A DNA stretch of 11,431 nt from a virus (UHGV-1944538), one strand, 5' to 3'; numbered from the stretch's first letter, positions 994-11,241 are shown. Notes: a model not told the origin generated them from the sequence alone. Program-made: numbers and translations.

Positions 994-1518
994 TCAGCTA
1001 AAATTCCTGTATCCATATTTACCATGCAATTCCAGTGATGCAGCATCATAGGCTTTTGCAGCTTCTTCTGCTGTATTAAACTGACCCAGATAATGAGATT
1101 TTCCATTACAGCGTATTGTAGCCCAGAACCCCTTGTTATCCACTCTTGGGTGTACTCCCTTGTAACCTGATTTTGTTTTCTTTCTGGGTATCATGTTTGC
1201 CTGATTCTGCTCTTTGGTAACCTCTCGAAGATTGCTAATAGCATTATTTAGCGGGTCACCATCTATATGGTCAATCCATAGTTTAGCTTGTTTACCATGA
1301 TATAGATAGAAAATAACCTGATGCACCTTAAGTATTCTGAACTTACCATTAATCCGACAACCAAAAGCCAGATATTGTCTTGGTTTAGGATTTACAAGTG
1401 AACCCTCGATTTTTACACCTTTTCTAAATAATGTTCCAGATTCAAAATCTGCTGTAATATTTTCATTGATGTATCTTATAACTTCTTCAGGCCATGCCTT
1501 GGTATACCTAGTCACCAT
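994..1518 (-). CDS. HNH-AP2 family homing endonuclease (N-terminal NUMOD4/HNH_3-like domain plus C-terminal AP2 DNA-binding domain)
   Basis: 174-aa ORF. HNH-type motif WIDHIDGDPLNNAISNLREVTKEQN; AP2-type C-terminus GYKGVHPRVDNKGFWATIRCNGKSHYLGQFNTAEEAAKAYDAASLELHGKYGYRNF. AAGGA about 7 nt upstream of ATG on the minus strand. Confidence 0.85.
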   Translation of the reverse strand: MVTRYTKAWPEEVIRYINENITADFESGTLFRKGVKIEGSLVNPKPRQYLAFGCRINGKFRILKVHQVIFYLYHGKQAKLWIDHIDGDPLNNAISNLREVTKEQNQANMIPRKKTKSGYKGVHPRVDNKGFWATIRCNGKSHYLGQFNTAEEAAKAYDAASLELHGKYGYRNFS

Positions 1519-2518: not shown

Positions 2519-2827
2519 CAGAGAGGTGAATACTTGATAGATACAGCTTTCCGGTTCTGTCAAGCTATTTTTTAATAGATAGCACAAAGTGCTAAAGACA
2601 CCCCTATACCATCTCGTACAGGGGGTTTTGGAGGGATTAACGGGGGTCTGTATGGTCGTTATCCTTAAGGTCAAGCGTCCATGTACGACCGAACAGTCTA
2701 AAGACAACAAGCACCCTGACGAGGACGTAGCGAAGTAACAGACCTGCGAACAGACCCACACCTCCACCAGCCCACAAATCAGGTGACCCCAATTCCTGAG
2801 GGAGATTTACCATTAAATTTCCTTGTA

Positions 2828-2925
2828 AGACGCTCTCAATCGCATTCTGACACAAAAAAGTACCTGACCTTATAGTTGACCTGAAGAGGACGTTTAACTC
2901 GTTACAGAGCGATTGAAGAGGTCTG
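2828..2925 (+). repeat. Inverted-repeat-bounded unit I (98 bp): 5' block AGACGCTCTCAATCGCATTCT..CAAAAAA, variable middle, 3' block ..CTCGTTACAGAGCGATTGAAGAGGTCTG
   Basis: 5' and 3' blocks are conserved with unit II at 4468-4588; CTCAATCGC (2835-2843) is the reverse complement of GCGATTGAG-type sequence at 2909-2917, with an extended imperfect inverted repeat of about 16 bp. Confidence 0.7.
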
Positions 2926-3031
2926 CGTGCAATGCAATAACCATGTGACCAAATACATGGCCACGCCTTTATATTTTACTCTCCCCATAGGACCATTATA
3001 CCACAGATGTTAATAAAATGTTAAAAAATAC

Positions 3032-3060
3032 TTGACATTAGCCTTTGAAACTGCTAGTAT
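3032..3060 (+). promoter_or_regulatory. Candidate sigma70-type promoter TTGACA-N17-TAGTAT upstream of the 3112 operon
   Basis: TTGACA at 3032-3037, 17-nt spacer, TAGTAT at 3055-3060, followed by TGTATATATGAGTTAACAGA; about 50 nt upstream of ATG 3112. Confidence 0.45.
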
Positions 3061-3111
3061 TGTATATATGAGTTAACAGAATAATAACATCTTATGAGGG
3101 TCAGAATATGA

Positions 3112-3666
3112 ATGAGAGATGCAGAATTTAGAGCGATGCTTCAAGCATCAAGGGAACGTAACAGACACAACGGTTACAGCTACACAGACACCCCCACCAG
3201 CTACGAAGTCCCAGCCTTTACCAAATCCGAACGTAAAAACATTGAAGCGGTCATTCGTAGCATTACGCCACGAGACAGATATATGCCAACCAGAAAGAGC
3301 ACGAAGAATAGCTTGAAACCTTTCCTGATGAGCTTTGATTCTTACGAGCAATTACCATCAAAAATTGAAGATGTAATTATCGGTACTTGTCGCAGTCTTG
3401 GAAGGGATAATTATCACCGGAAAGTTTTCTATTTACTGCGAAGTCTTGATGAGATTAGTTCAGGCGCAATAACAAATTATCTTCAGCGACAAGCAACCAG
3501 ACTTAGCTACGAATTACCGTCTGATGGGTATTGCGCTAATTTAAGTACCATTTGCAGTAAAGTTATCGAGACAATCAATCATCATGTTGAGGTTGGTAAT
3601 ATCAACCTTACGACAAGTGAGCCAGACTTTGAATTTGACGTATACGCACAAGCAGAGGAATTTTAA
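3112..3666 (+). CDS. Hypothetical protein, 184 aa, acidic C-terminus; first gene of a four-gene coupled operon
   Basis: Long ORF downstream of the promoter-like site; GAGGG upstream of the start; stop 3664-3666 sits 1 nt before the next start codon. Confidence 0.7.
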   Translation: MRDAEFRAMLQASRERNRHNGYSYTDTPTSYEVPAFTKSERKNIEAVIRSITPRDRYMPTRKSTKNSLKPFLMSFDSYEQLPSKIEDVIIGTCRSLGRDNYHRKVFYLLRSLDEISSGAITNYLQRQATRLSYELPSDGYCANLSTICSKVIETINHHVEVGNINLTTSEPDFEFDVYAQAEEF

Positions 3667-3667
3667 A

Positions 3668-3955
3668 ATGAAAAACAAACACACTTTAACCCGTATTACA
3701 AAGACAGCCTTTGACGAACTTAACCGAATCAAAAACATTACAGGTCTGCCACACTCAGCAGTGATGAAGCTTGCAATTAACCGTGATATTAACGAACAGG
3801 ATTTGCTTAATAGTCGCTTAGAGGCTGCAAGACACCATATCAGGATTAAGCAAGATGACCTTGATAGTCTGAAATCTTTAAATGTTTTTGGACTGGATTT
3901 AGCAAGGTTACTAAGTATCAAAATTCACAAGTTAGCGGATAAATTGGGGGTTTAA
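3668..3955 (+). CDS. Hypothetical small protein, 95 aa (start placed at the ATG with an RBS, not at the track's upstream ATG 3584)
   Basis: GAGGA at 3655-3659, 8 nt before ATG 3668; the track start at 3584 lies inside the preceding gene. Confidence 0.65.
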   Translation: MKNKHTLTRITKTAFDELNRIKNITGLPHSAVMKLAINRDINEQDLLNSRLEAARHHIRIKQDDLDSLKSLNVFGLDLARLLSIKIHKLADKLGV

Positions 3956-4170
3956 TGCTATGCGTTACCTTTGAATATCACACGGATAAAATGATTCGCT
4001 ACATCTCCGACCTCCTGATTGAAGGAAACGGATTCGGTGACATCCACAACTCAAAAGATATTTTCATTAAAGCCATTGGCCCAAATGAAGTACTGAAAGC
4101 AGCAGTCAAGCCAGAATGGTTTGAGCGTCACAAGATTGAATTAGGTTATTGGGGTGAGGAGGTTTTATGA
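3955..4170 (+). CDS. Hypothetical small protein, 71 aa
   Basis: Start overlaps the upstream stop (TAATG at 3953-3957); GGGGG just upstream. Confidence 0.6.
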   Translation: MLCVTFEYHTDKMIRYISDLLIEGNGFGDIHNSKDIFIKAIGPNEVLKAAVKPEWFERHKIELGYWGEEVL

Positions 4171-4454
4171 AACCTTGGCATGAAGATGTTAGACGATATT
4201 TTACAGAACACCTTATCTATGATGAATCCAGTGATTCCCTGTGCTGGTCTGATGGAGAGTCAGTCACGATAAATACCGACGACTACGGCAACAAAACATT
4301 TAATATAGGCCGATATACTTTCTACGTGAAATATGTTGTCTGGTTCCTTTATCATGGCTATCAATCCAATAAGCAAATTATCCATCTAAATGGTAACAGA
4401 GCCGATACCAGACCAAAAAATCTTATGCAAGTCCGAGACTTTAAGAGAAATTAG
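4167..4454 (+). CDS. Truncated HNH_3-like protein, 95 aa, paralogous to the N-terminal half of the HNH-AP2 endonuclease but lacking the AP2 domain
   Basis: ATGA overlap with the upstream stop; GAGGAGG RBS. WHEDVRRYFTEHLIYDESSDSLCWS and YVVWFLYHGYQSNKQIIHLNGNRADTRPKNL parallel WPEEVIRYINENITADFESGTLFRK and HQVIFYLYHGKQAKLWIDHIDGDPLNNAISNL in the 994-1518 product. Confidence 0.65.
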   Translation: MKPWHEDVRRYFTEHLIYDESSDSLCWSDGESVTINTDDYGNKTFNIGRYTFYVKYVVWFLYHGYQSNKQIIHLNGNRADTRPKNLMQVRDFKRN

Positions 4455-4467
4455 AAAAACAGCTTCT

Positions 4468-4588
4468 CAGACGCTCTCAATCGCATTCTAACGCAAAAAA
4501 CTATCTTATTTTAGGGTGGGTAATACCACTGTACAGACTACCCCTGAAAAAGACTGTTTAGCTCGTTACAGAGCGATTGAGGAGGTCT
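4468..4588 (+). repeat. Inverted-repeat-bounded unit II (121 bp), homolog of unit I with a longer variable middle
   Basis: 5' block 4468-4500 and 3' block 4551-4588 nearly identical to unit I; it fills the gap between the 4454 stop and the RBS of the 4611 gene. Confidence 0.7.
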
Positions 4589-4610
4589 GGTAAAAAGGAG
4601 ATTTTAAGAA

Positions 4611-4940
4611 ATGAGAGAATTAAACTTCCCGCTACAGATTTTCGTTGATAGCGACACTGCTATGATGGTGCAAAGCTTCACTGATGCAGGTATTAGCATT
4701 GACTTTGACAGGCTGTTAAAGCTAATGGCTGAGAACTCAGAAGCAATTGAAGATTTTATTCAGGAAATTGAAACTGGTGACCCACGTTTTATGTTTCCCG
4801 TTACCGACTCAAACATGAAGCGCCTTATTATTGAGGAAACTAACCGATACAGCGTTAGCCCTGAAAAATATCTCAAGGCGGCTATAGTAATTTTGTACGC
4901 TGACAATGTTTTGGTTACGGATTCGAAGGTGGTGCATTAA
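4611..4940 (+). CDS. Hypothetical protein, 109 aa, acidic
   Basis: AAGGAG at 4595-4600 upstream of ATG 4611; clean ORF. Confidence 0.65.
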   Translation: MRELNFPLQIFVDSDTAMMVQSFTDAGISIDFDRLLKLMAENSEAIEDFIQEIETGDPRFMFPVTDSNMKRLIIEETNRYSVSPEKYLKAAIVILYADNVLVTDSKVVH

Positions 4941-5041: not shown

Positions 5042-5070
5042 TTGACAAATAACCTTGAGCATGACATAAT
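5042..5070 (+). promoter_or_regulatory. Candidate sigma70-type promoter TTGACA-N17-CATAAT
   Basis: TTGACA 5042-5047, 17-nt spacer, CATAAT 5065-5070, followed by TGTATATATAGG as at the 3032 promoter. Confidence 0.45.
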
Positions 5071-5076
5071 TGTATA

Positions 5077-5268
5077 TATAGGAAGAGCAATTTTTCCTAA
5101 AATCATATTTTCAATAATCCGATGGATGGATATTCTGAGTTGGAAAGGTGCAATGCTTTTCGTCATGGCCTTTCAGTTTAGTCTGAGAGGCTATCTCAAA
5201 AAGTCTTTGTTCATTCATTATTGAACCCTTACAGCTTTGCCCTAATCATGAGTTAGGGCGTTTTCTTT
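5077..5268 (+). ncRNA. Candidate small RNA of about 190 nt between promoter 5042-5070 and the intrinsic terminator at 5239-5268; could instead encode a small hydrophobic peptide
   Basis: Promoter and terminator bracket a region with no RBS-preceded ORF; the track ORF 5042-5224 begins at the -35 hexamer itself. An internal 23-codon frame (5152-5223, MLFVMAFQFSLRGYLKKSLFIHY) lacks a good RBS. Confidence 0.3.
5239..5268 (+). terminator. Rho-independent terminator: stem GCCCTAA/TTAGGGC, 7-nt loop, then GTTTTCTTT
   Basis: Perfect 7-bp stem at 5239-5245 and 5253-5259 followed by a T-rich tract. Confidence 0.5.
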
Positions 5269-5337: not shown

Positions 5338-5370
5338 AAAGCCCTTCACAGAAACGTTTAGGGCTTTTCT
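5338..5370 (+). terminator. Second, weaker terminator-like hairpin: AAGCCCT ... AGGGCTT then TTCTT
   Basis: 7-bp stem with a 14-nt loop and a T-rich tail; shares the GCCCT..TTAGGGC..TTT pattern with the 5239 hairpin. Confidence 0.3.
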
Positions 5371-5468
5371 TAATAGAGCATCTTTAATAAATCGTTAAGT
5401 CATCTTCTAAGTGTATTGGCGTTGAAGGTGCTCTATTAAGAAATAAACCACACTTAGAGGAAGTTATA

Positions 5469-6513: not shown

Positions 6514-6583
6514 TGCTACGTGAAATCTTCTGAACAGATATACCCACCAAAAATTATTTTTTACGTAGCTCACGCTTAACAGA
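6514..6583 (+). repeat. 70-bp direct repeat, copy 1, containing an 11-bp inverted repeat (GCTACGTGAAA ... TTTTACGTAGC, one mismatch) and a CACGCTTAACAGA tail; lies immediately upstream of the 6599 gene
   Basis: 67 of 70 identity with 8659-8728. Confidence 0.8.
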
Positions 6584-6598
6584 GGTGAAATATGAACA

Positions 6599-8647
6599 AT
6601 GGCACAATTTAAAGTTGATAGTTTTATCGTTGAGCTAGGCTTCAGCGAGAACGTTATTAAGGGCTTGCAAAGAGTTGAAAAGGCAGCTTTGCAGTCAGCA
6701 CAAAGAATTGAACGTAATTTGAATAGAGCGTTTAAGGTCGATACCAAGCAATTTGACAGCAATCTGACAAGTTCTTTGAAGTCAATGGAAGGAAAAATTA
6801 ATAAGACCTTTGACCGTCTGGAAGCTAGAGCAAAAAATACTAAAGCTTTCCAGTTTACCACCAGATTTAATGACACTGTTAATCCTCCAAAACAACCGAG
6901 ACAGCCACGAATTAGCGGAAACAGAGCAATCACAGCAGCTTATTCAGCTAATATGACCAAGCTGAAAGGTCTTAACCCAATTGTCGAGAAATACATTAAG
7001 AGCCAGTTTTACGCATTAAGTAGTAAAGCTGGTCAGATGGATAACACCAAGTTTAATGAAGCCCTTGCTAAACTAAATTCAAGTGTAAGAGAAGCAATCA
7101 CTAAAGCCAGAGGTCATACATCCACCAGCATTAACGGTGACAGAGCAGCTAATAGTCTTGATAGTTTGAGTTCAGCAGCAGTTAAAACAGCAGGTGCATT
7201 TATCAGCTTTCAAGCTGTACTATCCGCTTATCAGCGAGTAATGGAAGTTGGCCTTCAACGTGCATCATCGGAAAGAAGTATTGATTTCGTATTTGATAAA
7301 GATGCAGGCCAAGTAAAAGAGTTCACAAAGTCATTAGCTCAAACAACGGGTTTAGATATCGCTGAACTGCAATCACAGTTTGCTGGTTTTGGTGCTTCAG
7401 CTAAAGAGTCTATGGGTATTCAAGGTTCTGAAGAACTTTTTAAAAGTATGATTGGCTATTCTCGTTTAATGGGTCGAAGTGAAGAAGAGATTAAGCGAGC
7501 ACTGACAGCATTATCACAGATGGCTGGTAAGGGTCAGATTATGGCTGAAGAGCTTAAGGGGCAATTAGCTGAAGCTGTTCCTGGTATGGTTCAGGTATTC
7601 GCTAAAGCAACCGGAAAGACTGAACAGGAATTATTTGATGCCATGAAGAAGGGGGCTTTAAAATCTGCCGATACTCTTCAGAAGGTCACTCAGGAACTGA
7701 ATAGACAAATCACCGCTAAAGGTGGCTGGAAAGCTATTTCAGAAAGTACACAGGCACAGCTAGGGAACCTGAAAAACTCTTGGAATACCACGCTTGATAG
7801 TATCTTCAGAGGTTCTGAAAATGGTCTGCAAGATTTCACACGAAGCCTAACAACGCTTTTAAACGCTCTTGGTGGAAGTGGTAAAACATTAGGTGAAAGT
7901 TTTGGTAGCTTGATGAGCGATATGTCACATGGTGTCGATAACCTGACTGATATTAGTTACAGGGTAAGGGCGTTCTTTGACGAGGTGACATTGGCTTATC
8001 GTGGTTTAACCGATGAACAAAAGAAAGTTGTTGATGCTTTAGGTTCTGGCTTGATTAATAGTTTAAAAGTCTTGGCTGGTGTTATTGCTGTGAATAAAGT
8101 TGTTGGTGTAACCAGAAGTATTTACGGGCTTATGACTGCTATCACAAGATTAGGTCAGGTCGCTGATACTACAGTGGATAACGTGAATAGAAAGAACGGG
8201 AAACCATCAAGGTTTAATCTTGGGAATATGCTATTAGCTGGTAGTGCTATCTATGCAGGTTATGAGAGATTAGCTTCTACGCCTGAACGAATGGAAGCAC
8301 AAGCTAAATTACCAGAGCTGGCTAAAGAGTCTGGACTTAAGCCAGTATTTACTATGGACGATGTGAAAGGTTGGTTTAATAGTGCAGCTATGAATCTTGC
8401 TAACTTCCAGCATCCAGAATTAATCACCATGAGACAAGATGCGGCATTAACGAATACGGATATCCAAAGCCTGAGAGATGAAATTAGTGCTTTGAGCAAA
8501 CGTATTCAGGAGCCTGTGAAAGTTTCACTTGGTGGTGAAGTTGCCATTAAACCAGATGAAACCAGCTTTATGACCTTTAGCAGTAATATCTACGACCAAT
8601 ACGCAGAAGCTACGCTATTAAGTTCATCATTCCCAGAAGATGATTGA
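6599..8647 (+). CDS. 682-aa protein with a tape-measure-type domain (central GKGQIMAEELKGQLAEAVPGMVQVFAKATGKTEQELFDAMKKGALKSADTLQKVTQEL segment) and a coiled-coil-rich N-terminus
   Basis: Long ORF; the central segment resembles, from memory, the conserved domain of siphovirus/lambdoid tape measure proteins. GAGGTG lies 11 nt upstream of the ATG. Domain assignment not verified by search. Confidence 0.75.
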   Translation: MAQFKVDSFIVELGFSENVIKGLQRVEKAALQSAQRIERNLNRAFKVDTKQFDSNLTSSLKSMEGKINKTFDRLEARAKNTKAFQFTTRFNDTVNPPKQPRQPRISGNRAITAAYSANMTKLKGLNPIVEKYIKSQFYALSSKAGQMDNTKFNEALAKLNSSVREAITKARGHTSTSINGDRAANSLDSLSSAAVKTAGAFISFQAVLSAYQRVMEVGLQRASSERSIDFVFDKDAGQVKEFTKSLAQTTGLDIAELQSQFAGFGASAKESMGIQGSEELFKSMIGYSRLMGRSEEEIKRALTALSQMAGKGQIMAEELKGQLAEAVPGMVQVFAKATGKTEQELFDAMKKGALKSADTLQKVTQELNRQITAKGGWKAISESTQAQLGNLKNSWNTTLDSIFRGSENGLQDFTRSLTTLLNALGGSGKTLGESFGSLMSDMSHGVDNLTDISYRVRAFFDEVTLAYRGLTDEQKKVVDALGSGLINSLKVLAGVIAVNKVVGVTRSIYGLMTAITRLGQVADTTVDNVNRKNGKPSRFNLGNMLLAGSAIYAGYERLASTPERMEAQAKLPELAKESGLKPVFTMDDVKGWFNSAAMNLANFQHPELITMRQDAALTNTDIQSLRDEISALSKRIQEPVKVSLGGEVAIKPDETSFMTFSSNIYDQYAEATLLSSSFPEDD

Positions 8648-8658
8648 TAATAGTCGAA

Positions 8659-8728
8659 TGCTACGTGAAATCTCCTGAACGGATATACCCACCAAAAATT
8701 ATTTTTCACGTAGCTCACGCTTAACAGA
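8659..8728 (+). repeat. 70-bp direct repeat, copy 2 (perfect 11-bp inverted arms GCTACGTGAAA / TTTCACGTAGC), immediately after the 6599-8647 gene and upstream of the 8805 gene
   Basis: Near-identical to 6514-6583; the two copies bracket the tape-measure-like gene. Confidence 0.8.
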
Positions 8729-8804: not shown

Positions 8805-9578
8805 ATGATTTACACTAATCAGCTTCGTTACACTGGCAAAGATGGCGTTTACTTCCACTTAAGAGATAATGTAGATGCCTTCTTAACTTTATCAGCAACT
8901 GAAAATATGGAATTTGACAGCCCTATGCAGGTAACTACACAGAACATGCAATCAGGGCAAACCGTCACAGATAATGTGCAAAGAGCACCCAGAACAATCA
9001 CTATTAGCGGTGTCGTTGTAGTTGGCTATGAAGGAAGCTTATTATTAACTCGTCAGGGTCAATTAGTAGAAAACTTCATTGACACTCTTGAAAGCTGGAG
9101 AGACCAGAAGCAAATTATTTCGGTCATCTGTAAAGACGGTATCAAAATTGATGATTCCATTATTACGAGTTTTAAAGCCTCTAAAGATGTTGGTATTTCA
9201 AATGGTCTAAGAGTCCAGCTAACTTTTCAGGAAATTAACTTTAAAGCTATTGTGGGTCAGACTGATATTTCATCTGCGACTGGAAAAGCCGCGACTACTA
9301 ATGATGGTGGTGCTACCAGTAAAAAGAATGCGGGTAACGTGACTACTGAACGCAATAACGCACCTATGTTGCTGTGTCAGGAACTGTACAGCTACTCAGC
9401 ATCTGAGCTATCTGATGAAGCGTTAAAAGCCCGTAGTAATTGCTCTAAAAATGTCACGGTGAAAGATGGTGTAAGCACCTTCTCAGATGCCGCTAATGCG
9501 CAAGCTTCAAAAGTGCTTAAGTCGGGTAATGCTTTACGGAAGTTTAGTGTGAATCCGAATAAGAAGGGCACTTATTGA
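8805..9578 (+). CDS. Hypothetical protein, 257 aa, with a Ser/Thr/Asn/Gly-rich linker ([30 protein letters not shown]); positionally a possible tail-module partner of the upstream gene
   Basis: AGGAG at 8794-8798, 6 nt before ATG 8805; the track's earlier start at 8784 is a TTG without an RBS. No confident domain assignment. Confidence 0.65.
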
Positions 9579-9597: not shown

Positions 9598-11241
9598 CTA
9601 AGCGTCCACCTCTTCCATATCACCAGCAGGATAAATCCTTGTTACTGGTTCACCAAAAATAAGCATATCATCTAGTGACTGCATCTCATCGGTTGCTTCT
9701 TCAAGCGTTAAGGTGTGGTCATCTTTACCATCAAGAGGGAAACCACGAATCATATTTCCATTGTGAAGATATATATCAACCAGCTTTTCATTACCAGAAA
9801 CAACAATCTCTTTCACCAGACGCTTAATGATAATCTGGGCTTCAGTTCTCCCCTCTACAGACTCCATATCAAGACCGCTTAAATCCAAGCTTGATACAGA
9901 TTTTACCCTCGCCTTTTCTCGTGATAACTGAACTATCAGTTCATCTTTTTCTTCCTGCTTAATCCGTAGTGCTTCTTGAATCTGAGTGATGTTAGGAAGC
10001 TGTATCAGCGTCTCAGTGAGTTTTTCCAGTTCACTATCAACGGTGTTTAGTCTGCGTTGTAGCTCATCTAATTTAGCTGTGTCAGTAGCTTCATCGTGTA
10101 GCTGTGACAGTTTGCTGAACAGACGACTACAAAGCTGTGTATCAAGTAACTTTCTGGACACTGTACCGTAGCTACAACGGGACTCCTTATTACCATTGCA
10201 ACGGTAAGTACCTTGATAAACGGGTTTACGTATCCCTGTAGGAGTCATTACAAGCCCACACTTACAACGGATAAGCCCCTTCAGTATGTTCACATATAGC
10301 CAGTGTTCACCGCTGGATGTTTTCCCCTTCCCTGTTTCCTCTAACAGTTGCTGTACAGCGTAAAACTTAGAGTCTGTGACAATCTGAGGATAGAACCCTT
10401 CAATTTCTTCACGTAACACTGTTTTACGGTCTTCTGTAGAAATCTTAGCGGGAAGGTAACCTAATACACTTCGTGAAGTCAGGATGTGTTTAACGCTTAA
10501 TGCTGACCAGTTGCCATCCGGTTTCTTAGTCTTGGATATTCTGACCTTACGCTGATTAATGGTCGGGTAACCTTGTTCGTTTAGCCATTTGCAGATAGCA
10601 AACATCGACATACCAGAAAGACGCTTGTCATAGATGATATTCACCAGTGACGCTTTATCTTCATCAACGATGTAGTGTGAACCGTCTTCTGATAGCTCTA
10701 ACCATCCGGGGGCTTGCTTACCCATAGGCTTCTTAAGTTCTCTTGCAAGCTGTGTTTTATGGTTCCAGACCTGAGCTATACGCTTTTGCTTAACAAGAGA
10801 TTCTTGGTGTGCTCGCTCAGCTATGATGATGTGCTTAATCAACTTCACAGGGTCTGTTAATGCTGATTTGTCGTAGAGTTCACCATCTCCCAGAGTCAGT
10901 ATAGAGACCCCTTTCCTCAGTATCTGCCTGACATCATCTATAGCTGTGTCGATATCAGCCCTACTGAAGCGGTCAAAGTTCTCTACAACAATCAAGGAAC
11001 CTTCTGGAATAGCCTCAGACATAACATTTTCAAACATACGTCTGAAGTCAGAACCTTGATTCTTATGTTGCTGGTGAAAACCAGATTTACCCTTATCAAC
11101 ATATCTGTGAGCAGGAAGAAGGTAATAATCGTTTTTGTGCTTAGAGTAGAAAGCATCAATGAGGTTTGTTTGCCGTCTTAAGGAGTCTCCTGAGTCTTGC
11201 TCTTTAGTACTCCACCTGATGTATGTCACTAGCAGCTTCAT
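9598..11241 (-). CDS. int: Large serine recombinase (serine integrase) of the element
   Basis: 547 aa. N-terminal resolvase-type motif YIRWSTKEQ with a candidate nucleophile Ser; Cys-rich zinc-ribbon-like segment [11 protein letters not shown]...[14 protein letters not shown]; C-terminal coiled coil. Located next to attR and read inward. Confidence 0.9.

Follow-up and report, generated by a model that had tools for sequence, protein, structure and literature searches.

Small chromosomal islands that live at the expense of a helper phage are typified by the PLE, PICI and PICMI families, which combine an integrase, a regulatory operon at the front of the island, genes copied from a specific helper and non-coding DNA imitating that of the helper; the sites mimicked by satellites are the helper's origin of replication (ori) or its packaging site (pac). 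To our knowledge, satellites of virulent phages have been well studied only in Vibrio (PLE, PICMI). Among the proteins of PLE, NixI of Vibrio cholerae is, like I-HmuI, an HNH/N nicking endonuclease, whereas CapR, in the work of Netter et al. of 2021, is said to be a domesticated relative of homing endonucleases used as a repressor. As to DNA-binding proteins, TraY of the F-plasmid relaxosome and DndE are built of two ribbon-helix-helix motifs in tandem within a single chain, and proteins of the ribbon-helix-helix class typically control their own genes through phased short repeats. The subject of the present analysis, to be compared with all these systems, is a four-gene operon (open reading frames ORF1 to ORF4) contained in UHGV-1944538, a stretch of DNA of 11,431 nt referred to hereafter as the window.

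The interpretation preferred here, albeit tentatively, is that the operon joins a DNA-binding control module (ORF1/ORF2) to a cargo derived from a domesticated nuclease (ORF3/ORF4), and that both would belong to an island directed against Felix O1-like phages, either a PLE-like satellite or a defence island. The evidence computed in this connection comprises the coding status and coupling of the genes, the fold of ORF2, the residues lost from ORF4, the mosaic structure of the operon and a motif common to island and phage.

The four ORFs described in the initial annotation (184, 95, 71 and 95 amino acids, with tight junctions) were confirmed in coordinates, lengths and junctions, all of which are given in Table 1 or can be read directly from the sequence: ORF1 and ORF2 are separated by a single nucleotide (TAA-a-ATG), ORF2 and ORF3 overlap by 1 nt (TAATG) and ORF3 and ORF4 by 4 nt (ATGA). 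The same types of junction recur in related islands, also where another gene comes after ORF2, in keeping with the tight coupling and the phage-associated setting described earlier. The listed reading frame of ORF2 reaches an upstream ATG at 3584, but homologues conserve instead the start that yields 95 amino acids; for ORF3 the 71-amino acid start is favoured, the residues ahead of Met13 being conserved, although some annotations use the internal Met. Nei-Gojobori distances calculated on genes taken out of related islands yielded median pairwise ratios of non-synonymous to synonymous substitutions (dN/dS) of 0.19, 0.17, 0.24 and 0.07 for ORF1, ORF2, ORF3 and ORF4, respectively, so that all four are protein-coding and constrained by purifying selection; furthermore, the frames are intact in every copy of ORF3 and ORF4 examined. 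Since no intrinsic terminator follows ORF4, the transcription unit may extend to a fifth gene (4611-4940).

The notion of one four-gene operon stands as far as coupling is concerned but not as far as evolution is concerned. Three other islands (L002, L003 and L011) were compared with the window: the two 100-nt segments immediately before position 3200 are 77-88% identical in DNA and ORF1 and ORF2 (3200-3899) 54-72%, whereupon identity rises to 94-100% from the end of ORF2 to ~4600; in the same island pairs the synonymous distance (dS) runs from ~0.4 to >2 for ORF1/ORF2 and from 0.02 to 0.2 for ORF3/ORF4. Moreover, the slot after ORF2, inspected in the window and in 14 other loci that cover it, is filled in several ways: by ORF3 and ORF4 in nine loci (window included), by a 128-amino acid protein with a weak helix-turn-helix match in four, and, in one locus each, by an ORF4-type gene followed by the 128-amino acid protein or by an ORF4-type gene, an 87-amino acid gene and an ORF3-type gene. 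The jump in identity, the contrast in dS and the alternative cargos thus identify ORF1/ORF2 as an old, divergent and conserved core and ORF3/ORF4 as a near-identical cassette in an exchangeable slot, a division by virtue of which the two core genes look like control genes and not like effectors.

What the core genes might control with is best seen in ORF2. None of the four products had seemed recognisable at first, a statement no longer valid for this protein, which according to structure prediction is a single-chain ribbon-helix-helix pseudo-dimer of the DNA-binding type. An AlphaFold model built on a 20-sequence alignment (predicted local distance difference test score, pLDDT, 89.7; predicted template-modelling score, pTM, 0.81) displays, by DSSP, a strand (residues 5-11), two helices, a second strand (55-61) and two further helices; pseudo-dimerization is deduced from the fact that the monomer model leaves its two strands only each other to pair with. 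The model is structurally similar to solved members of the ribbon-helix-helix class, and its strand motifs are near-invariant across two allelic classes of ORF2 that are only ~60% identical. In being a tandem protein in one chain ORF2 resembles TraY and DndE; unlike DndE, however, it has no membership at the level of sequence (its DndE match, E 0.019, misses the cut-off) and, unlike the genes of both proteins, its gene has neither a relaxase nor dnd genes nearby and sits in a phage-related island.

That sub-threshold DndE match is the only one returned for ORF2 by profile scans (Pfam, PHROGs, NCBIfam, PADLOC), which gave no match for ORF1 and ORF3 and no family in support of the anti-defence or interference role that had been envisaged; sequence and profile searches of the PDB with the four proteins yielded no significant match either. 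The operon has no blastn match among phages, where tblastn found one match to ORF1, in an Aeromonas phage, and a single weak one to ORF4. If the operon were a toxin-antitoxin or abortive-infection module, ORF2 would be its ribbon-helix-helix antitoxin, but it consists entirely of the DNA-binding fold and is devoid of a toxin-neutralising tail, no toxin family was matched in Pfam, NCBIfam or PADLOC, and the gene after ORF2 is freely swapped while ORF2 remains, so that no recognisable toxin partner is retained downstream; the idea, hardly credible on these grounds, was rejected.

ORF1, the companion of ORF2, is all-helical with no known fold and defines a narrow family (25 clusters at 50% identity among 1.8 billion proteins). 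Its distant members, 212-289 amino acids in length, hold the same position in other islands equipped with a large serine recombinase and a tape-measure gene, and one of them directly follows a Cro-like gene in a prophage; the position of the gene suggests a control or initiator protein. The possibility that either ORF1 or ORF2 is a recombination directionality factor was discarded, as neither covaries with the type of recombinase: compared with one island (L001) the recombinase of the window is 98.7% identical and ORF2 only 60%, compared with another (L004) the recombinase is 27% identical and ORF2 96%.

As regards the cargo, ORF4 scores 34.3 bits against the Pfam HNH_3 profile (gathering score 24.8), covering profile positions 2-39 of 46, and aligns with residues 7-100 of the HNH-AP2 endonuclease of the same island (29% identity, E 4e-8). 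The initial annotation was therefore right in likening it to the N-terminal, HNH_3-like part of that enzyme only, and right in regarding it as truncated; as to its being a paralog, the two genes are relatives within a family and not recent duplicates, because each of them occurs independently among the islands. The residues D74, H75, N87 and N96 of I-HmuI served as the catalytic reference, and all four are kept in HNH-AP2. In ORF4 the general base H75 and the structural N87 are retained as His73 and Asn85, whereas the metal-ligand D74 is replaced by Ile72, so that the site whose His and metal ligands had been singled out for checking is preserved in part; the sole candidate counterpart of the catalytic and metal-binding N96 is Asn95, the last residue of the chain, which lies at +10 from the structural Asn instead of +9 and is hence one position out of register. 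His73 occurs in this allele and in eight related copies. A sister allele (L006, L010), ~40% identical, with saturated dS and truncated at the same point, has Ile, Phe and Asn at the first three positions and lacks the fourth, its chain stopping at +5; both alleles are under purifying selection. In NixI, activity depends on the catalytic Asn, the equivalent C-terminal residue, N95, being essential (PMC9410903). Furthermore, ORF4 has no C-terminal DNA-binding module (AP2, helix-turn-helix or NUMOD), its 95 residues being followed by an inverted-repeat element. An incomplete catalytic set, in a family whose other allele is also without the His, agrees with the earlier suggestion of an inactivated nuclease fold and, since two ancient alleles end at the same point, the short form must be old and maintained; ORF4 is probably a long-preserved, non-catalytic derivative. 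ORF3 has neither family nor PDB matches, and no relatives outside its own family emerged from the profile and PDB scans, but an ORF3-type gene is found together with an ORF4-type gene in all ten loci that contain it, including a 33%-identical version in another gene order.

This constant association is one of the arguments for a different view of the cargo, namely that ORF3 and ORF4 together make up a functional nickase directed against phages and similar to NixI, with ORF4 operating through an unusual yet working HNH/N site and ORF3 providing specificity, activation or self-protection. ORF4 does belong to the same I-HmuI-type family (HNH_3) as NixI and, like NixI, is carried by an island with a large serine recombinase facing a virulent myophage (here a presumed one); the two retained residues, the Asn that ends the chain and the strong purifying selection (dN/dS 0.07) point in the same direction. 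On the other hand, ORF4 is about half the size of NixI and I-HmuI and is without their Asp ligand, in-register catalytic Asn and DNA-binding domain, the last seven positions of the Pfam profile being absent altogether; in the sister allele, likewise under selection, Phe takes the place of the catalytic His and the chain stops five residues past the structural Asn; and a catalytically complete HNH-AP2 is already present on the island. An active nickase is accordingly judged unlikely. For the proposed role of ORF4, a protein of nuclease origin that a satellite would employ in a non-cleaving capacity, CapR would set a precedent; unlike ORF4, CapR reportedly stems from a different nuclease family and keeps its DNA-binding domain.

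Still less probable, and indeed very much so, is that ORF3/ORF4 are the decaying remnant of a homing endonuclease that spread selfishly and has no role, the operon being concerned with island housekeeping only. The patchy distribution of the cassette, its identity of 95-100% as against divergent flanks and its linkage to a mobile-looking inverted-repeat element would fit such an origin; yet dN/dS values of 0.07 and 0.24 with frames intact in every examined copy, and two ancient alleles cut at the same point, are not what decay would leave, and an inactive nuclease would be unable to home.

The island in which the operon resides, ~11 kb long and coextensive with the window, lies in strain ES5 between ymdF and wrbA; variants with the same gene order are located between yciI and tonB or split yecE, and their serine recombinases are only ~27% identical. 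From left to right the island comprises a variable left arm (with HNH-AP2 and/or a Dam methylase plus a small resolvase), a small gene on the minus strand, the operon, three genes of unknown function, a tape-measure gene, a Dit-like tail gene and the large serine recombinase. Of 5,426 complete E. coli genomes, 444 contain the operon region, which is chromosomal in every case, and a scan of species-representative genomes found it otherwise only in E. albertii and Citrobacter; the four matches in IMG/VR are on contigs of 25-54 kb, bigger than the island itself. An integrase and discrete integration between host genes, as expected of a satellite, are thus both observed.

A genetic link to a specific helper is observed as well, in that the Dit-like gene, the tape-measure homologue, a non-coding motif and the base composition all connect the island to Felixounavirus. 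Compared over its full length, the Dit-like protein shares 75% identity with a Felixounavirus protein encoded beside the tape measure (265 phage records), and 505 nt of its gene (8834-9338) are 93.5% identical to positions 13743-14247 of phage Bas63 (MZ501086.1, 87 kb; L022 and L023), which implies a recent exchange of DNA, limited to part of one tail gene, between island and virulent phage. The guanine + cytosine content is low, 39.1% for the island and 39.0% for Bas63, the value reported for Felix O1 being also 39.0% (PMC3185647). The start of the tape-measure gene (6598-6733) was also seen to be 76% identical to Bas63 over 136 nt, the whole tape-measure protein being only 31% identical. By homology, by the DNA in common with the phage and by analogy, the island looks like a PLE-like satellite or a defence island aimed at Felix O1-like phages, and no description of such an island family was found in the literature searched. 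Like PLE, PICI and PICMI, it is small and integrated and has an integrase, a regulatory operon in front, genes copied from a specific helper and an imitation of helper non-coding DNA; unlike them, it carries a tape measure and a Dit-like tail protein and not capsid-remodelling or small-terminase genes, and its dependence on a helper is a prediction.

The non-coding motif concerns the promoter of the operon directly. Two back-to-back promoters (Table 1), the first of sigma-70 type, drive the operon and, in the opposite direction, a gene for a 58-amino acid membrane protein, the latter promoter being conserved; the 110 bp ahead of ORF1 are better conserved than the genes they drive, and this region is near-invariant in ten islands whose ORF1 and ORF2 proteins differ by 13-44%. 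The operon promoter is bracketed by two pairs of TGTTAA hexamers phased by 11 bp, which are the candidate target sites of ORF2. The inverted pair is degenerate in the window (TGTTAT...TGTTAA, one mismatch) and perfect in seven related islands. The window and each of 13 further island loci have a pair at the position of the upstream one (3008-3024 in the window), and in none of these 14 loci do such pairs occur away from this promoter. In Bas63, 12 of the 13 TGTTA[AG] pairs are crowded within 750 bp (70983-71737), as compared with 0-1 TGTTAA pairs in shuffled sequence; the region belongs to 1.6 kb of non-coding DNA flanked by convergent gene blocks and is conserved in 256 phage records, nearly all of them bearing the name of an Escherichia, Salmonella, Shigella or Citrobacter phage or of Felixounavirus. 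The paper describing the Felix O1 genome left transcription control of this phage unexplained (PMC3185647). Elsewhere on the island, positions 1875-1986 are 71% identical over 114 nt to this phage region, a resemblance that may represent ori or pac mimicry. A ~900-bp non-coding stretch of the island, including 1859-1987, was in addition seen to contain four TGTTAA/TTAACA hexamers in symmetric arrangement. The record of phage humlepung opens inside the phage region, which would make the latter a candidate terminal repeat, but the repeat annotated there is only 35 nt long.

According to the interpretation preferred here, ORF2, as a TraY/DndE-like double ribbon-helix-helix protein, would bind together with the helical ORF1 to the hexamer pairs around their own promoter and, by overlapping the -35 element of the divergent promoter of the small membrane protein, would constitute an autoregulated switch. 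Given that the motif recurs in great number in one non-coding region of the phage, the module would, in the course of infection, act on phage DNA too, either to interfere with the phage or to hijack it. ORF3/ORF4 would be exchangeable cargo translationally coupled to the core, and ORF4 together with ORF3 would act as a non-cleaving factor binding DNA or protein, cleavage not being expected because part of the metal site and the entire C-terminal DNA-binding part are lost. A more far-reaching proposal, which we regard as a rather slender possibility, is that ORF1/ORF2 are an iteron-binding pair of a satellite reading the TGTTAA-N5-TGTTAA array of a phage control region (origin or packaging/terminal), a single specificity serving both to set the island's own switch and to seize or block replication or packaging of the helper, with ORF3 and the dead HNH protein as a swappable add-on.

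The identity of the TGTTAA binder, like every phenotype considered here, is inferred, and several observations weigh against the preferred interpretation. In a distant island where no ORF2 homologue is detectable, a TGTTAC pair lies within the promoter of the ORF1 homologue, so that ORF1 or a phage protein is indicated as the binder. No covariation ties ORF1/ORF2 to the TGTTAA sites, and the variants of the promoter leader do not follow the allelic class of ORF2. Only two of the five AlphaFold models of ORF2 are confident, and the assignment of a fold to ORF1 is unsupported by PDB and profile searches. The ORF4 allele of the window, with its general-base His, structural Asn and terminal Asn, may have residual nicking activity. 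Homologues of ORF1-ORF4 are absent from Bas63, and satellite behaviour (induction, packaging, interference) is a prediction by analogy.

The first of these observations lends weight to what we consider the main alternative, although a doubtful one in its own right, i.e., that a protein of the phage occupies the hexamer pairs, for instance a replication or packaging factor that uses the iteron array, that the promoter is thereby a sensor of the helper by which the operon is turned on or off upon infection, and that ORF1/ORF2 act on other targets (later genes of the island, its replication or DNA processing). The motif is indeed far commoner in the phage than in the island, and a copy of 114 nt of the phage region elsewhere on the island would conform to the habit of satellites of mimicking ori or pac sites. 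Yet no candidate for the phage binder was identified, the near-consensus sigma-70 promoter of the operon should fire without any phage, and self-regulation through phased short repeats is what ribbon-helix-helix proteins typically do.

Several reasons make the locus worth pursuing. Islands of this family are common in E. coli, Citrobacter and E. albertii, and near-identical DNA links them to the Felix O1-like phages, a group with wide application in typing, biocontrol and therapy. The operon, being the most conserved non-structural part of the island, is the natural entry point to how the island senses the phage and exploits or blocks it, and the motif common to the operon promoter and the phage non-coding region offers a concrete hypothesis that is cheap to test. 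ORF4 would be a second possible case of a nuclease-derived protein kept by a satellite that may have stopped cutting. Should ORF1/ORF2 prove to be an iteron-binding pair, they would represent the control core of a new and common satellite family (~8% of E. coli genomes) of virulent coliphages that carries genes for tail length and tail tip.

Table 1. Position of the operon and of other features within the window
Feature	Coordinates	Strand	Remarks
HNH-AP2 endonuclease gene	994-1518	-	optional cargo of the left arm, alternating with Dam methylase plus small resolvase
Gene of 58-amino acid single-pass membrane protein	2637-2813	-	divergent from the operon; served by the divergent promoter
Inverted-repeat element, second copy	2823-2925	+	upstream of the operon promoter, within the leader of the 58-amino acid protein gene
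Divergent promoter	2995-3024	-	TTAACA-18-TATAAT with TG; consensus scan 11/12
TGTTAA-N5-TGTTAA pair	3008-3024	+	abuts the operon -35; second hexamer coincides with the divergent -35 (TTAACA)
Operon promoter	3032-3060	+	TTGACA-17-TAGTAT, TG before the -10; consensus scan 10/12
Inverted hexamer pair	3073-3090	-	~+5 to +22 of the operon transcript
ORF1	3112-3666	+	184 amino acids; first gene of the operon, family-defining
ORF2	3668-3955	+	95 amino acids; predicted single-chain tandem ribbon-helix-helix DNA-binding protein
ORF3	3955-4170	+	71 amino acids; orphan, seen only alongside an ORF4-type gene
ORF4	4167-4454	+	95 amino acids; truncated I-HmuI-type HNH_3 domain, probably non-catalytic
Inverted-repeat element	4463-4590	+	long and imperfect, ~105-130 nt; between ORF4 and the next gene
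Large serine recombinase gene	9598-11241		profile match

The neighbours of the operon deserve some comment. The gene for the 58-amino acid protein is present in all 14 island loci covering the region, with conservative substitutions and in-frame indels; its product has a Gly-rich N-terminus, one hydrophobic helix and an acidic tail and might serve as a small toxin or act in exclusion or lysis. The HNH-AP2 enzyme, with its full set of I-HmuI catalytic residues, shares only ~40% identity with the homing endonucleases of other phages, T4-like ones among them, and 39% with a Bas63 enzyme of this kind. Distant homologues of ORF1 on other Enterobacterales contigs (L013/L014 and L015/L016) stand at the front of comparable islands that have a large serine recombinase and a tape measure; one of these islands is larger and adds genes for a tail assembly chaperone and for Dit-like, Pam3_gp18-like and E217_gp41-like proteins; this type of tail-module island thus seems to extend beyond Escherichia. 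Scans for Rfam families and tRNA genes found none in the window.

The inverted-repeat element downstream of ORF4 has a minimum free energy of -47.1 kcal/mol, as against -29.1 for shuffled sequences (z -4.8), with similar values for the other strand; it is 95-100% identical in the islands bearing the cassette, with which the downstream copy travels, and was found in 422 genomes. Its candidacy as a terminator was rejected for want of a U-tract, and so was that as an essential regulator, either copy being absent from some islands; without a U-tract, transcription probably runs on into the next gene, as far as a terminator-like site at 5238-5260. This hairpin, resembling an intrinsic terminator, is located ~170 nt after the strongest promoter match of the window (TTGACA-17-CATAAT with TG, 5042-5070), with no conserved ORF in between, and a small RNA may be encoded here. 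A 22-nt inverted repeat is found at 5366-5443.

Other repeats are scattered along the island. The 10-mer CTACGTGAAA occurs seven times in the window compared with 0.7 expected, six of the copies forming inverted pairs at 369-378/456-465, near the left end of the island, at 6516-6525/6559-6568 and at 8661-8670/8704-8713; the last two pairs (6516-6568 and 8661-8713) are inside 70-nt repeats that precede the tape-measure and the Dit-like gene, respectively, and the seventh copy, an exact one, is within ORF4 (4322-4331). The 10-mer and the 70-nt repeats were considered as phage promoters and rejected, the former not being enriched in Bas63 and no phage match being found. Finally, two AT-rich direct repeats of 54 nt (2370-2423 and 2465-2518), 91% identical and 95 nt apart, lie in non-coding DNA to the left of the operon.

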